Source: Phycisphaeraceae bacterium (GTDB lineage: Bacteria; Planctomycetota; Phycisphaerae; Phycisphaerales; Phycisphaeraceae). Taken from it: a stretch of 64,000 bases of DNA. The stretch spans positions 3,936,001 through 4,000,000 of the forward strand of contig OY771506.1 in assembly GCA_963674705.1 (NCBI GenBank), in the 5' to 3' direction. Below the pieces are notes generated by a model. The model made no database searches. It had not been told where the DNA came from and was given only the letters and a program-made list of their open reading frames with translations. This document shows positions 14,346 through 20,119 of this stretch, piece by piece (within the stretch, counting starts at the first letter, position 1; every line of letters begins with the position of its first letter). The position numbers and the translations under genes are program-made.

Positions 14346-14852
14346 TTACTTGGCTTGCGCAGATGTCAGATTAATAGGCTCGCCACATTCTGGGCAGGTT
14401 GCGGCATCGCTTCTACCTCGTAAGTTATAGCCACAGCTATAACAATCACCAAGCCTGGGTTTCCTGGTCAATCTAAAAGCGATGTGAGTCAGAGGTAAGG
14501 CTATGAGCAATAGCAGTAGGATCCAAGATGGAAACGTGGTTTCCCACTCATATTGATCCGCTTCCCAGTCAAAATGCCACCAACCTGATTTGTATCCATC
14601 TGCCATCGTTTCTGAAATTGGCCTGATGTAAAAGCATCCTGTTGGTATGCGTCCCAGATCGCTGTCCACAACCGTTACCAAGCCAGGTGACATTTCAAGC
14701 ATGTGGTAGCCAATCGGTGACTTGTGTATGAAAATATTCAGTTGATAGAAGTAGGACGTGACCCAAAGTGCGAAGCAAACGGCTATACATAAACTGCTAA
14801 TACATAAAGCTACTGAGCGCCCTCGGCCATGTTCCTTCAGCACCCGTCTCAT
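14346..14852 (-). CDS. Membrane protein with C-terminal CxxCGYxLxG...CPECG zinc ribbon (array member 3)
   Basis: ATG 14852 overlaps the upstream stop (ATGA); TM...WVTSY, loop, FPSWI TM, then CYSCGYNLRG...CPECG. Confidence 0.8.
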   Translation of the reverse strand: MRRVLKEHGRGRSVALCISSLCIAVCFALWVTSYFYQLNIFIHKSPIGYHMLEMSPGLVTVVDSDLGRIPTGCFYIRPISETMADGYKSGWWHFDWEADQYEWETTFPSWILLLLLIALPLTHIAFRLTRKPRLGDCYSCGYNLRGRSDAATCPECGEPINLTSAQAK

Positions 14853-15330
14853 ATCACTTCCCCGCACTCCGGGCAGGTTGTAGACTCTTTGCTGCCACGC
14901 AGGTCGTAGCCGCATTCGTTGCAACAGCCAGTATTAATTGTATATGACCGTCTGTAAAGCAAAGCAAAAATCGGCCAGATACTTGATACCACCACGAAAA
15001 TCCACAGCGGAATAACATTGATCAAAACCCCGCCCGCATCTATGAAATCAAACCATCCGAAGACTCTTGATGGCGTAAGCCCTGCGATACTGAAGTGGAA
15101 GTGCATGCTCTTGTATGTCTCTCCGGCATTCGCAAAAACAACACACAGTTGCCCATGATTTAATTCAATCGCGATGCCCGGATAGTAGATCACGGTGTAC
15201 GAAACCAGAGATAACAGCCATATCCCGTGAACGAATACTGCAAACAGTGACGTTATGATGAGAACGCACCGAAAGACCGATCCGGTACTTCTCGGCTGAT
15301 ATCTCATATCACCTCGCCACACTCCGGGCA
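14847..15330 (-). repeat. Two 29-bp direct repeats at gene junctions (14847-14875 and 15302-15330)
   Basis: TGCCCGGAGTG(T/C)GG(C/G)GA(G/A)GTGATATGAGA, 26/29 identical; a degenerate third copy lies at 14379-14396. Confidence 0.85.
14849..15307 (-). CDS. Membrane protein with C-terminal zinc ribbon (array member 2)
   Basis: ATG 15307 overlaps the upstream stop (ATGA); TM...WLLS, loop, IPLWI TM, then CNECGYDLRG...CPECGEVI. Confidence 0.8.
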   Translation of the reverse strand: MRYQPRSTGSVFRCVLIITSLFAVFVHGIWLLSLVSYTVIYYPGIAIELNHGQLCVVFANAGETYKSMHFHFSIAGLTPSRVFGWFDFIDAGGVLINVIPLWIFVVVSSIWPIFALLYRRSYTINTGCCNECGYDLRGSKESTTCPECGEVI

Positions 15331-15630
15331 CTCCAGCTTCGACAAGCCCTTGAGGATATAGCCGCACTGCCTGCAGCGGCATTCGCGATCGTACTTCGGC
15401 CGCAGTATGAATATGAATGCGAGCACGCTCGTCGCACAGGTCAGGGCGGTCATGGGGATGCCGATCAGGCCTATTCTTATCAACTGCATCCACCAGAATC
15501 CCGGAGGCAGAGGGGCGTTCGCGACCTTGAGTTGGATAAACATAAGCAGATTACTGAACGCGACGCCCACCACCGTGCCGCATGCCACCGCGATCAGGAA
15601 CCGGCCGACGCCGCGTCTGGTTATCTGCAT
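15304..15630 (-). CDS. Two-TM protein with C-terminal zinc ribbon (array member 1)
   Basis: GGAG RBS; two TM helices; CRQCGYILKG...CPECGEVI. Confidence 0.8.
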   Translation of the reverse strand: MQITRRGVGRFLIAVACGTVVGVAFSNLLMFIQLKVANAPLPPGFWWMQLIRIGLIGIPMTALTCATSVLAFIFILRPKYDRECRCRQCGYILKGLSKLECPECGEVI

Positions 15631-15764: not shown

Positions 15765-15794
15765 TTGCATACCCCCGGGCCAATCGCCTATACT
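15765..15794 (+). promoter_or_regulatory. Putative sigma70 promoter of tRNA-Cys
   Basis: TTGCAT-N18-TATACT, ending 13 nt before the tRNA. Confidence 0.55.
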
Positions 15795-15807: not shown

Positions 15808-15891
15808 GGCCGCGTGCCCGAGTGGACTAAGGGGGCTGATTGCAAATCAGCTAGGCTTCGCCTGTCGTGGGTTCGAATCCCACCGCGGCCT
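15808..15891 (+). tRNA. tRNA-Cys(GCA), 84 nt, long variable arm, CCA not encoded
   Basis: Acceptor GGCCGCG/CGCGGCC plus U73; anticodon arm GCTGA-TTGCAAA-TCAGC; 15-nt variable region with an AGGC/GCCT stem; T arm GTGGG-TTCGAAT-CCCAC. Confidence 0.95.
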
Positions 15892-15895
15892 TTTC

Positions 15896-15923
15896 GACCC
15901 GCTTTCATAGCGGGTCTTTTTTT
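15896..15923 (+). terminator. Intrinsic terminator after the tRNA
   Basis: GACCCGCT-TTCAT-AGCGGGTC followed by a T-run. Confidence 0.9.
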
Positions 15924-15932
15924 GTCGTGTGT

Positions 15933-17528
15933 CTACTCGCCCGCCAGCCTCATGAGTTCGGTTTCGACCGCGTCAAACATGTAGCCGATCATCAGGGCCC
16001 GGCGGTTCGGGCGGATCATGCCGGCGTAGACATCTTCATATTCGGCGTGCAGTGCCTGCATGTCTTTCAGGATGGCGTTGACTCGGTTGCGATCTGCCTC
16101 GGGAGAGTAGCCATCCGTACGGCTTTGCAGGATCACCTCGACTGCCTGGGCGCGGTTAATGAGGTTGCGTGCCGCCAATTCCCAAAGCCTGAGTACCTCA
16201 TCACCTTTCGTCGTGTCCTGGCGAAGCGTCCGGAATAGTTCAAGGCTTTGCGTATAGTCCTGGGCACACTTCTGCGCCCGCATGATTTCGATGTCTAATC
16301 TGTCTGCCTCGATCATTTTTACGATGGCATTTTCGATATGGTCCTTACTGACAGGCAAGCAGGCCTTATCGTATCCGAGCGAGCGCGAATTGCTGAATTG
16401 GCAAAGGCCGGCCAGCCCATCGGCGGCTTTCCAGAATCGGTCGTCCTGTAAGCCATAGGCATCATTCACATACCACGCTCGGAAGTCGCTCAATGACTTG
16501 CCGGGGTTGCGCGACTGGTAGCCGAAGGCGGCGATCTGGGCGTGCTGCAATTCCCAGGGATGCAGGTGCATAGACCAGCTTGTCAGCACCGAGCCGCTTA
16601 ACCCGGGAGTCTGCATGCCTTTTTCGGCTGAGTCCCATGCGTTCCACAGGTGCAGTTCATGACGTGGTGCAAAGACATTGTCGCCGAAGCTGCTCGACCC
16701 GGGGCAGGTGACGGTGGCAAATCCCTTGTCAGCCAGGAAGTCAGCCGAGTAGAACGTCTCGGGGTCGACACCCGGCGCGTCGCCGTTGGGGAACAGGTAC
16801 TTGCCGAAGAGTTCCAGGGTTTCAGGGTTGAGTTGATCCCGCGTGCGTAAGCCGCGGTCGTCGCCCCAAATAAACACCTTGCCGTTGCCTCGCCAGATGT
16901 CGTACATCCAGTCGAACAGCATGATGTCCCGCGACAGTTCATCGATCGCCTCGTGGTGGTGCAGCACCATGTCTGCCCAGATGATCGGCGTGACGCCTCG
17001 CTCAAGCAATGGCTCTGAGACCGCGTTGATGTGCCGCATGAATATCTGCGACACGTTCAGGCCTTCCTTGTTCCATTCGCTTTGCTGGATGAAGTCGAGC
17101 TCCCGTGCTTCGTCGGCGCCGATATGAAAGTACTTGACATCCCCAAACAGGTCCATGTACTCGGCGATCCAGGCGTGGATAAGCGGGACCACCTCCGGGT
17201 GGAACGGGTTGTACTGCGAGGTATTCTCCGGATTGGCACGCAGGTGCTTGTATTTGTCGTATTGAAGCAGGTATTCGACATGCCCCAGCGTCTGGAGCAG
17301 CGGGATGTGTTCAAGCCCGAGCCCACGCGCATGTTCCAGAACCTCACGGAATTCTTCTTTGCTTAACGCATCGGGCTGGCTCGCTTCTGGTGCGGTCTCC
17401 CATACGACACTGTCCTCCATCTCCCAGACGATCGTGTTGTAGCCCATGCCCGCGAGTTCGGTCAGCCAGGCCTTGAGGTAGTCGGCCTTGTATAAGGCCA
17501 TGTTCATGTCGATGTGGAAACCAATCAT
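15933..17528 (-). CDS. GH20 family beta-N-acetylhexosaminidase-like protein (no signal peptide)
   Basis: GFHID, IPLLQTLGHVE, FHIGADEA (catalytic DE pair) and IWADM motifs. Confidence 0.85.
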   Translation of the reverse strand: MIGFHIDMNMALYKADYLKAWLTELAGMGYNTIVWEMEDSVVWETAPEASQPDALSKEEFREVLEHARGLGLEHIPLLQTLGHVEYLLQYDKYKHLRANPENTSQYNPFHPEVVPLIHAWIAEYMDLFGDVKYFHIGADEARELDFIQQSEWNKEGLNVSQIFMRHINAVSEPLLERGVTPIIWADMVLHHHEAIDELSRDIMLFDWMYDIWRGNGKVFIWGDDRGLRTRDQLNPETLELFGKYLFPNGDAPGVDPETFYSADFLADKGFATVTCPGSSSFGDNVFAPRHELHLWNAWDSAEKGMQTPGLSGSVLTSWSMHLHPWELQHAQIAAFGYQSRNPGKSLSDFRAWYVNDAYGLQDDRFWKAADGLAGLCQFSNSRSLGYDKACLPVSKDHIENAIVKMIEADRLDIEIMRAQKCAQDYTQSLELFRTLRQDTTKGDEVLRLWELAARNLINRAQAVEVILQSRTDGYSPEADRNRVNAILKDMQALHAEYEDVYAGMIRPNRRALMIGYMFDAVETELMRLAGE

Positions 17529-17778: not shown

Positions 17779-18852
17779 TCAACTCACCGTCTGGCAGAGT
17801 TGGTCCTGGGCCTGCATGTAGACAAGCTCGTGTAACGGCTTGTCGCAAACGATCAGGGCAGGCTCGCAATTGGTTGCTTTTCGCAACTGATCGCTGAGCC
17901 ATTTGCCCAGATCGCGGGTATAGATCGAGCCTCGGCCGCAGAAGACGATGGCGTCGAGTCCGCTCATCGCCGCCACGGCTGCGCCGCATTGACGCATGAG
18001 CTGGTATTGGAATATCTCACGGGCTGACTTGATCGATTCATTGGCATCATCAAGCACGGCTTCCCACGTGACGGGTTGGCCGATCAGACCGAGCATGCCG
18101 CTTTCCTGGCCCAGGCAGCGGTTGATGCGGTCGGCGCCCCAACCTTGTGTGCGTGCCAGTTCGAGGACGATGCCGGGGTCGATATCGCCGCAGGCTGTCA
18201 GGCCGCACAGCCCTTCGAGTGGCGTCATGCCGCTGCTGATCATCACGGGCTTGTTCGCGATGGTCGCAGCTAGCTCGGGTCGTGGTTCGAGGCAGATTGA
18301 GATGATCTTGCCATCTGCTTTGCCGATCTGATCCGATGCCATTCGGCAGGCGTAGTCGTGATAGATGCCGTGGAACCCGCAGCGACGGGCCCGCAATTGC
18401 TGCGACAGCTTGAAGTCGATCGCATAATGGACTTCGTGCTCGGGCAGCGGCTTGTAGAAGCTAGACTTCGAAACCACGACTACAGGCGCATCCTGTGCGA
18501 CCTGCATGCATGCGCGGATCAGTCCGACCGAGCGAGGCAGGTGCAGGGGGGCTGCGGGGATAAGCGATTCAAGTTTCTCTAGTAATGCCTGATCCGCGAT
18601 CATCGGGCCGCCCACAGCGTCCGCACTATACGGCACGCACACGACGTAACCGGTGTCCTGCGGCTCCCAATGCGGGCGATTGTCCTGCTGTTCGATAGCG
18701 CGGATGATCCTGCCGAAGTCGCTGTCGTCGGCGGGGGCGTGCAACGTGCCGCTTACGACGGGCTTGCTCAATTCCGCATCGAACATCGCGTATTCAATCG
18801 TCTTGGCGGCCGGGATGAGAACTACTGTATTCATGGATCGATCTTTCTTCAC
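17779..18852 (-). CDS. Degenerate acetate-kinase-family protein (probable pseudokinase)
   Basis: Keeps APLH, GFHG, MTPLEGL, GDIDPG and ESGMLG; has lost NxGSSSxK, HR.VHGG, FDT, TRSG and TxEE. Confidence 0.8.
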   Translation of the reverse strand: MKKDRSMNTVVLIPAAKTIEYAMFDAELSKPVVSGTLHAPADDSDFGRIIRAIEQQDNRPHWEPQDTGYVVCVPYSADAVGGPMIADQALLEKLESLIPAAPLHLPRSVGLIRACMQVAQDAPVVVVSKSSFYKPLPEHEVHYAIDFKLSQQLRARRCGFHGIYHDYACRMASDQIGKADGKIISICLEPRPELAATIANKPVMISSGMTPLEGLCGLTACGDIDPGIVLELARTQGWGADRINRCLGQESGMLGLIGQPVTWEAVLDDANESIKSAREIFQYQLMRQCGAAVAAMSGLDAIVFCGRGSIYTRDLGKWLSDQLRKATNCEPALIVCDKPLHELVYMQAQDQLCQTVS

Positions 18853-20049
18853 TCAGACTGCTACGGAATCAACGGTCCGCCACGCCATTCTTGCAAGGGC
18901 CAGCTCTTCGTCCGTATGGATGACCCAGATTCTTACGGGGCTGTCGTCTGTCGCGATGTCGGCAGGCAGTTCGCCCGGATTGTTATTACGCTCAAGGTCC
19001 AGCTTGACACCAAAGCATTCCATCTCGCGGCAAGCCATCTCGCGCACCACCGGCACGGTTTCGCCAAGCGTATCCGTGAAGATGATCGTGTCGGCATTCC
19101 CGACGACCGTCAGGAACGCGCCGAGATACTTCCGCAAACGCCAGGTCGAGACACGCAGCGCCAGATCCGGCTCATCTTGCCTGGCATCATCACCGAGCAG
19201 GTCACGCAGGTCGGCAGAAGCTTGAGTCATGCCGAGGATGCCGCTGTTTTTATTGAGTAATTTTTCGGTCTTGTTGAAGTCGCCGTCCGCCTGGTGGATC
19301 AGGCGCAAGACCAGGCCGGGATCGATGTCGCCGCTGCGTGTGCTCATGACCAAGCCTTGCAGCGGGGTCAGGCCCATCGTGTTGTCTACGGAATGCCCAT
19401 CACGGATCGCACACAGGCTTGCGCCGCCGGAACCAAGGTGGCAGCTTACCGCGTTGAGTTGATCGAGCGGCTTACCAATCAGCCTCGCTGCTTCGGTGGC
19501 GACATACTCATGGCTGATGCCGTGGAATCCGTATTTGCGGATACCCATCTGCTCGGTCAACTCACGCGGAAGCGCGTAGGAGGATGCGTACTCAGGGATC
19601 GACGCATGAAAAGCCGTGTCGAACACACAGATCTGCGCCAGATCGGGTAACTGCTCACGACAGATCTTCAGCATCGTGATAGCAGGGGGGTTATGAATCG
19701 GAGCCAGGTGCTGGATCGCTTCGAGTTCGACGACGATCTGATCGTCAACGATTTCAGGTTCTTTGAAACGCGTCCCGCCGTGCACGATCCGGTGCGAGAC
19801 CACATCGGGGCGAGTGGACTTATCGCTCTGCAGTACTTCTAGAATCGCAGCGAGTGCGGGGGCGTATTCATACGAATCCAGCGTGGTGGTCGTAGTTTTA
19901 CCATTGGCGTGATGGACGAACTCAGGCGGTTGGGCGGTAGGGGCTCCGATGCGTCGTGCTTCGCCGTGGCAAAGTACGACTTCATCAGGCATCTGCCGGA
20001 TACTGTACTTCAGCGACGAACTACCGGCATTTAAAGACAACACATTCAT
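18853..20049 (-). CDS. ackA: Acetate kinase
   Basis: NAGSSSLK, HRIVHGG, APIHN, FDTAFH, YGFHGISH, TRSGDIDP and TDEE; GGAGGT RBS before ATG 20049. Confidence 0.92.
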   Translation of the reverse strand: MNVLSLNAGSSSLKYSIRQMPDEVVLCHGEARRIGAPTAQPPEFVHHANGKTTTTTLDSYEYAPALAAILEVLQSDKSTRPDVVSHRIVHGGTRFKEPEIVDDQIVVELEAIQHLAPIHNPPAITMLKICREQLPDLAQICVFDTAFHASIPEYASSYALPRELTEQMGIRKYGFHGISHEYVATEAARLIGKPLDQLNAVSCHLGSGGASLCAIRDGHSVDNTMGLTPLQGLVMSTRSGDIDPGLVLRLIHQADGDFNKTEKLLNKNSGILGMTQASADLRDLLGDDARQDEPDLALRVSTWRLRKYLGAFLTVVGNADTIIFTDTLGETVPVVREMACREMECFGVKLDLERNNNPGELPADIATDDSPVRIWVIHTDEELALARMAWRTVDSVAV

Positions 20050-20119
20050 GGCCAAACTACCTCCAAGGGCCGCCAAGCAGCCGCATCACTCCAGGTACTG
20101 TCACATCAAGGGTATTGAT

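Follow-up and report, generated by a model that had tools for sequence, protein, structure and literature searches.

A long-arm, class II form of the regular tRNA-Cys in Phycisphaerales, most likely ordinary in function

What is a tRNA that carries the cysteine anticodon on a body with a long variable arm? The window analysed here is a stretch of 64,000 nucleotides from a Phycisphaeraceae bacterium, and its sole tRNA, identified by ARAGORN at 15808-15891 (+), is a tRNA-Cys(GCA) of this kind. The passages on long arms in PMC4033280, PMC9976931, PMC7609411, PMC13433404, PMC5766645 and PMC6933170 limit them to Ser, Leu, bacterial Tyr and Sec tRNAs, to selC* and allo-tRNAs, and to nev-tRNAs. A preliminary description of the locus had proposed either a lineage-specific class II tRNA-Cys that may need an adapted CysRS, or a tRNA charged by SerRS, LeuRS or TyrRS that would mis-decode UGY codons. 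From comparative sequence evidence we consider it very probable that the gene is a dispersed, likely housekeeping tRNA-Cys of a Phycisphaerales-type bacterium, an orthologue of short-arm genes with a conserved hairpin of 2-4 bp, which is most likely charged with Cys by an ordinary CysRS and would read UGU and UGC as Cys.

The gene is 84 nt long up to the discriminator U73 (15891), has acceptor and T stems of 7 and 5 bp and an anticodon stem of 5 bp, and does not encode CCA. The Rfam model RF00005 scores it at 56.5 bits (E 1.6e-9) and accommodates the additional nucleotides by an insertion within the variable region. The minimum free energy structure is a cloverleaf that includes the variable hairpin (-39.4 kcal/mol, z -2.49, with 3 of 200 shuffles equally good). 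The 5’ strand of the acceptor stem (15808-15814, pairing with 15884-15890) begins with G1-C72, G2-C71 and C3-G70, three pairs that are invariant across 36 long-arm sequences. Positions 15815-15834 hold U8, G9, the D arm and G26, and in a position-by-position parse, which also gives U73, the D arm has a 3-bp stem with G13·A22, together with G15 and G18G19. The anticodon GCA (15842-15844), as called by ARAGORN, reads UGC/UGU. The 15-nt variable region (15852-15866) consists of U44, a 4-bp stem (15853-15856 with 15860-15863) closed by a 3-nt loop, two unpaired nucleotides and C48, which is a register of the tRNA-Tyr type. It is longer than 10 nt and folds as a stem-loop, as in class II, and it falls outside the 4-5 nt of a class I loop. 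ARAGORN, Rfam and the fold agree on the 84-nt tRNA with GCA, U73 and a 4-bp variable hairpin that had been described, and the parse agrees on its D arm.

The preliminary description had also named a promoter and a terminator. A putative sigma-70-type promoter at 15765-15794 (+) (TTGCAT, an 18-nt spacer and TATACT, 13 nt 5’ of G1) matches the loose motif TTGnnn-16/18-TAnnnT, but a stricter sigma-70 scan does not list it, the -35 box matching at 3 of 6 positions, so that the promoter stands in the loose sense alone. The loose motif also occurs 5’ of 23 of the 48 dispersed tRNA calls (counted by eye) in the genome from which the window comes (G000), and 5’ of 69 of 121 long-arm loci, against a mean of 1.8 in 500 shuffles. 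For the terminator there is a counterpart: an intrinsic-terminator-like hairpin (15896-15916) with a T run, together 15896-15923 (+), lies between the tRNA and a convergent GH20-family gene (15933-17528, -); one terminator-like hairpin was found and 0.3 were expected. The neighbours of the tRNA are unrelated to translation, with the GH20-family gene on the 3’ side and small ORFs without Pfam match on the 5’ side. These ORFs are three tandem, small and hydrophobic ones (14346-15630, -), each ending in a CxxC...CPECG zinc-ribbon-like motif, and ORFs resembling them also lie 5’ of the tRNA in the three same-genus loci compared. Elsewhere in the window, a tandem pair of acetate-kinase-family genes (17779-20076, -), the second of them divergent, sits behind an M20 peptidase-family gene.

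The extra hairpin is conserved in about a hundred related genomes and is a trait of the lineage. Among 251 genomes of the order Phycisphaerales, 89 match a long-arm pattern, 128 a short-arm pattern, one matches both (G357) and 35 match neither, and the two forms are mutually exclusive in 250 of the 251. By family, leaving out G000, the numbers of long-arm, short-arm and all genomes are 56, 16 and 74 in f1; 29, 27 and 75 in f2; 1, 63 and 74 in f3; 0, 10 and 11 in f4; 1, 12 and 15 in f5; and 1, 0 and 1 in f6. Unpublished genomes are part of this survey, G384 among the 89 with a long arm and G302 among the genomes of the class without a long match. Within the class but outside the order, one genome of 253 (G089) matches the long pattern, with a sequence that is not a tRNA; a length-free tRNA-Cys pattern matched 269 of 301 genomes of the class. 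For the other classes of the phylum the long pattern was run alone, without a short-pattern control, and matched 0 of 236 genomes. In the Planctomycetota genomes surveyed, the long form is concentrated in one order, as expected of the lineage-specific class II tRNA-Cys that had been suggested. A stricter pattern, which misses lineages with other loop sequences, found 119 loci in 25 of the 64 parts of the GTDB contigs, and 101 of these have an intact long-arm tRNA-Cys; the 18 dropped are five half or gapped Phycisphaerales genes (L041, L074, L098, L102 and L107) and 13 chance, degenerate or short-arm matches. By title, 99 of the 101 belong to Phycisphaerales, Phycisphaeraceae, Phycisphaera, Phycisphaerae or Planctomycetota, one is unlabelled and one is a Saccharibacteria bin. 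In this Saccharibacteria-titled bin, which also has a short-arm tRNA-Cys, a 2.2-kb contig (G517 C15, loci L135/L154) carries a long-arm tRNA-Cys beside a tRNA-Gln, and may be phage or misbinned DNA. Two loci, L037 and L118, each have two long-arm tRNA-Cys genes about 200 nt apart or less. The pattern matches 15 loci in IMG/VR, and 8 of them can be parsed as tRNA-Cys with a long arm. Of these, one belongs to the Phycisphaerales type; the seven others, which are viral (L222-L226, L228 and L231), have variable regions of 14 or 20 nt, and their arms and bodies differ from that type.

The arm behaves as a maintained structure. We fetched 129 long-arm genes, 90 of them distinct, with 51 distinct variable regions; across the 129 the variable region is 12-18 nt long. 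At least two Watson-Crick pairs form in 43 of the 51 distinct arms in the register with one unpaired base 5’ and two unpaired bases 3’ before C48, where 2,000 shuffles average 3.7 such arms and never exceed 10, and the other 8 arms misfit this simple register by having bulged or shifted stems. In a covariation alignment of 36 genes, hand-picked to span the arm types with the bulged type omitted, the two outer arm pairs are paired in 36 of 36 genes and show 13 and 6 two-sided changes, respectively; taken together, the outermost three pairs are 95% paired with 32 two-sided changes, where slid registers are 29-57% paired. The tertiary core goes with the arm. All 90 distinct genes have G15-C48, 82 have G9 with G13 and 8 have A9 with A13; since the class II core features G9/G13 accompany the arm in 82 of 90, the core has been remodelled and the arm is not a mere loose insertion. 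In short-arm genes, G9 and G13 are common in f1 and f2 and occur together in only 1 of 85 genes of f3-f5 (by eye), and on the tree the association between arm and G13 is weak (12 independent pairs, median sign-test p 0.375).

In orientation, the arm of the G000 tRNA-Cys has the same register as that of the G000 tRNA-Tyr. The four dispersed tRNA-Ser of G000 have arms of 18-21 nt with no unpaired base before position 48, and G73, and its long tRNA-Leu have one unpaired base and A73. To our knowledge, the register with two unpaired bases before position 48 is specific to Tyr in bacteria generally. The arm of tRNA-Tyr hardly varies (13-14 nt, with 3 bp in each of the 28 genes parsed), whereas the Cys arms vary in length and sequence and keep their pairing, which points to selection on pairing and orientation and away from recognition of the arm sequence. 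The arm thus appears to be selected for pairing and register rather than for sequence.

The window gene is the only tRNA-Cys in the dispersed tRNA set of G000, but not formally the only one of the genome, as ARAGORN finds two GCA tRNAs among 79 tRNA genes. The second, the class I tRNA-Cys for which the preliminary description had advised a search, has an A2·C71 mismatch (C1:622805-622877) and lies inside a block of 30 tRNA calls. In this block (C1:622407-634804) most amino acids are represented, ORFs are interspersed and the GC content is slightly lower; it looks like a horizontally acquired long tRNA array. Such arrays are described in PMC8421152 as spreading horizontally, generally silent, stress-induced and reported in Planctomycetes. 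Among the other near-closed long-arm genomes, 8 of 10 have no second GCA tRNA by a looser pattern, and G004 and G412 carry an array-type copy. Two further observations concern tRNA-Leu in G000: two of the array genes (CAG, CAA) have short variable loops, and a dispersed tRNA-Leu(UAA) at C1:4149863-4149935 (-), of 73 nt with a 5-nt variable loop, is a type I tRNA-Leu, the reverse oddity. With its -i option, ARAGORN also reports an intron-containing “tRNA-Cys(ACA)” at C1:2934235-2934392; the acceptor stem of this call is broken, and we judged it spurious.

Long and short forms occupy one locus. With the tRNA masked, flanking genes are common to the long-arm and short-arm loci in all three same-genus pairs (G161/G383, G445/G407 and G055/G206), and between genera, two short-arm loci have a downstream gene in common with two long-arm loci. 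The body of the window tRNA, compared without the variable region and the D loop, is identical to three short-arm orthologues of the family at 54 of 58 positions and to 28 tRNA-Tyr at 37-45 of 58. The shared locus and the Cys-like body argue for descent from tRNA-Cys and not from tRNA-Tyr; as judged from these alignments, the gene is a tRNA-Cys by descent whose core has drifted toward that of class II. We selected 67 genomes to balance long and short arms (34 and 33), and on their RpoC tree the arm state changes at least 17 times (shuffled labels give a mean of 22.7, with 3 of 300 as low), and the CysRS tree gives 17 changes too. The direction depends on the costs assigned: 11 gains and 6 losses, 1 gain and 21 losses, or 21 gains and no loss. 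Many of the short loops inside long-arm families equal the out-group loop, and a few resemble deletions of the hairpin. In evolutionary terms, the arm is dispensable.

Where the arm came from is a separate matter. A plausible origin, to which we give tentative credence, is that a Cys body received its arm, perhaps with G9/G13, from tRNA-Tyr by recombination or gene conversion, once or repeatedly; it would explain how the arm arose and does not conflict with the explanation as an ordinary tRNA-Cys. The identical register and similar stem speak for copying, as does the arrangement in G044, where a tRNA-Cys stands directly 5’ of a tRNA-Tyr (L351, C24:127500-128000); this tRNA-Cys is a short-arm one with G9/G13, and exchange would be possible there. 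If the 17 or more state changes on the 67-genome tree are gains, they also need a recurrent mechanism. However, the Cys and Tyr arms of one genome are often unlike, as in G000 (others by eye), the Cys arms range over 12-18 nt where those of Tyr have 13-14 nt and 3 bp, small stable hairpins can converge, and a single gain with 21 losses fits the tree if a gain costs twice a loss.

A second question is whether the arm requires a co-adapted CysRS, which we hold to be very unlikely. There is a precedent for a dedicated enzyme, since PMC5389517 describes a CysRS* for selC* tRNA-Cys with A1:U72 in some Desulfobacterales. G000 has a single cysS above the cut-off, its closest solved relatives are ordinary CysRSs including 1U0B, and no sepS/SepRS lies above the cut-off in G000. 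The catalytic motifs of CysRS are kept equally in long-arm and short-arm genomes. Among 34 long-arm and 35 short-arm sequences, no column of CysRS, residue or gap, tracks the arm beyond permuted labels: the best p is 0.002 in 1,380 column-residue tests on the 69 sequences, 121 of 200 label permutations are as good, and the RpoC control has a smaller best p of 7.7e-5. The arm also changes state 17 times on the tree of the enzyme itself. As an aside, the cysS of G161 (C52:115366-116951) is read in two frames with one TGA, from a frameshift or an assembly error, in a genome rated 100% complete.

Still less likely is a dual identity, in which the tRNA would be mainly cysteinylated and charged by SerRS (or TyrRS or LeuRS) often enough to make UGY ambiguous. 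According to PMC9976931, bacterial SerRS relies on the long arm and tertiary shape and ignores the anticodon, and G2-C71 with a long arm are SerRS features; the window tRNA-Cys has both, and shares G1-C72 as well as G2-C71 with tRNA-Ser. Its arm differs from those of the G000 tRNA-Ser, however, in having 2-4 bp in the long-arm set and two unpaired 3’ bases, where the Ser arms have the length, pairing up to position 48 and G73 given above. The codons tell the same. We aligned two proteins, RpoC (34 long-arm and 33 short-arm genomes) and CysRS (34 and 35), in a test that detects reassignment and not a few per cent of mischarging: in columns where short-arm genomes conserve Cys, long-arm genomes have Cys in 448 of 454 cells (347 of 353 in RpoC, 101 of 101 in CysRS), and of the 5,087 long-arm cells in conserved Tyr, Ser or Leu columns, one has a UGY codon. 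UGY faces Ser no more often in long-arm than in short-arm genomes (2.4% against 4.5% in RpoC, 1.4% against 3.1% in CysRS), and it faces Tyr, Ser or Leu about equally in both. Reassignment of UGY is therefore rejected, conserved-Cys columns keeping UGY as Cys, and the mis-decoding feared in the preliminary description leaves no sign in these two proteins. With UGY read as Cys and no CysRS column following the arm, both recoding and an adapted CysRS are unsupported.

Lower again we place the idea that the whole gene is a tRNA-Tyr switched to Cys by U35C and A73U, which would have replaced the old tRNA-Cys. The resemblance is real in the arm, whose register equals that of tRNA-Tyr in G000 and in all 28 Tyr genes parsed, and the common Cys arms resemble the Tyr arm in their 3-bp GGC/GCC stem and tetraloop. 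At 21 positions that separate tRNA-Tyr from eight out-group tRNA-Cys genes, the long-arm consensus is Cys at 14 and Tyr at 7. The Cys-like positions include 3-70, 32, 35, 51-63 and 73, and 4 of the 7 Tyr-like ones (4-69 and 10-25) are already present in short-arm genes of sister families. A within-family test gives 14 of 15 positions as Cys-like, possibly by circularity, as the short-arm reference is from the same family. Together with the one locus that both forms occupy, these positions lead us to reject a whole-gene origin from tRNA-Tyr. The “tyrosine-like body” of the preliminary description is thus overstated: it holds for the arm geometry and G9/G13, but the D arm of the window type is also found in short-arm orthologues of 74-75 nt, and the body is Cys-like at the 14 of 21 positions. 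In G418, a second tRNA-like sequence with the GUA anticodon and a divergent body (C1:2432203-2432269) lies about 70 nt 5’ of the ordinary tRNA-Tyr.

To an assembly error or a pseudogene we attach practically no probability: G000 does have a second tRNA-Cys, but the identical 84-nt gene is present in G004 and G009, the 90 distinct long-arm genes are intact, the arm covaries, and the arm reads letter for letter the same in contigs from two other studies (runs X3 and X6) and in one X8 contig, which refutes the assembly-error reading that had been named as fatal to the case. Run X1 is left out of this agreement as it may be the source of the assembly, and another X8 contig, which probably comes from a relative, differs in its long-arm sequence. 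At 15876-15894, the 3’ end of the tRNA-Cys gene, the sequence resembles an integration site. Run X3 has two pieces here that share a 16-nt overlap, with about 1.65 kb between them, the X6 contigs break there too, and at the GTDB loci L074, L098, L102 and L107 only the 3’ half of a long-arm tRNA-Cys is present.

The reading as an ordinary tRNA-Cys implies a simple mechanism. The gene would be transcribed from the upstream promoter, CCA, not being encoded, would be added post-transcriptionally, and CysRS would charge the product through GCA and U73. The face of the tRNA to which class I synthetases bind lies opposite the variable arm, and CysRS probably accommodates the arm since the variable region is not among the parts that it reads. 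Himeno and colleagues reportedly found in 1990 that E. coli tRNA-Tyr with a re-oriented arm becomes a SerRS substrate; here SerRS is probably kept off by the Tyr-type register, in which two bases before C48 are unpaired, and U73 and C35 likely exclude LeuRS and TyrRS. In the account of PMC9976931, GCA and U73 are the major determinants for CysRS, TyrRS needs U35 and A73, and LeuRS needs A73 and A15-U48. The CysRS of D. tiedjei is reported to work in an assay built around a selC* tRNA-Cys with a long V-arm (PMC5389517).

Set beside known tRNAs, the window gene is closest to the canonical class I bacterial tRNA-Cys (E. coli cysT; PDB 1U0B; the 73-77-nt genes of other Phycisphaerae) in its GCA and U73, its first three acceptor pairs, a D stem of 3 bp with mismatched purines at 13·22, 7/5 stems, the locus of the short-arm orthologues and a standard cysS. 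It differs in having a covarying 15-nt hairpin for a variable region of 4-6 nt, G9/G13 for A9/A13, and G15-C48 for the G15·G48 of E. coli; by PMC9976931 and PMC13433404, G15·G48 is found in E. coli and a few other species only and is not a general feature of tRNA-Cys. With class II tRNA-Tyr(GUA) it shares a short arm that leaves one base unpaired on the 5’ side and two on the 3’ side before C48, a 3-bp D stem and G9/G13 (19 of 28 parsed Tyr genes), and it differs by C35 for U35, U73 for A73, C3-G70, and a Cys-descended body with freely varying arms where the Tyr arm is fixed at 3 bp. Bacterial tRNA-Ser has no unpaired base before position 48 and G73, in contrast to two unpaired bases and U73 here, and bacterial tRNA-Leu has A73 and A15-U48, in contrast to U73 and G15-C48.

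Three systems combine a class II arm, or a change of class, with an unexpected identity. The selC* tRNA-Cys (Mukai et al. 2017, PMC5389517) is likewise a bacterial tRNA of Cys identity (GCA or UCA, U73) with a long V-arm, and is charged by CysRS there; as described, however, selC* genes are tRNA-Sec-like with longer stems (8/4 in some delta-proteobacteria) and are extra species, sometimes accompanied by selB*/cysS*, whereas the window gene is a regular 7/5 tRNA-Cys with a 5-bp anticodon stem and a short Tyr-type arm. The nematode nev-tRNAs (PMC3333845; PMC4033280) also join a class II arm to an anticodon other than Ser, Leu or Tyr, but these reports present them as eukaryotic, weakly expressed extras that are leucylated, while the tRNA-Cys of the window type retains the identity elements of its own isotype, and its codons usually have no other tRNA. 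The type I tRNA-Leu of Streptomyces coelicolor (PMC6614811) is a natural switch of the variable arm within one isotype under one synthetase, in the opposite direction, the arm being lost from Leu, and both types are reported to coexist.

In the open full-text literature, the scope of our search, we found no description of a 7/5 long-arm bacterial tRNA-Cys, and the text of PMC8762117 contains neither “variable” nor “V-arm”. The regular tRNA-Cys thus has an apparently undescribed class II variant, conserved and evolutionarily labile and most likely of ordinary function; automatic annotations probably list such genes without comment. The reach of the finding is limited in that it reveals no new genetic code or enzyme. 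A bolder account, which we think unlikely, is that an essential tRNA repeatedly switches between class I and class II within one order without a change of synthetase, the arm having come from tRNA-Tyr, being kept in a register that SerRS and LeuRS reject and serving a purpose of its own, such as escape from a tRNA-cutting toxin or phage nuclease, or replacement of a class I core modification. If true, and with parallel long-arm tRNA-Cys in phages and other lineages, Cys would be a fourth, overlooked isotype capable of class II form. The ordinary tRNA-Cys that we prefer has consequences of its own. A long arm with an anticodon other than Ser, Leu or Tyr does not alone signal recoding, which is a warning for the reading of such genes. 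In about a third of the sampled genomes of the order, the usually sole and regular tRNA-Cys breaks the rule that long arms belong to Ser, Leu and Tyr. The origin of the class II form is an open question for bacterial tRNA-Tyr, according to PMC13433404. The same-genus pairs that differ essentially by the arm alone are a natural minimal test of how class II tRNAs originate, and also of arm orientation as an anti-determinant against SerRS and LeuRS.
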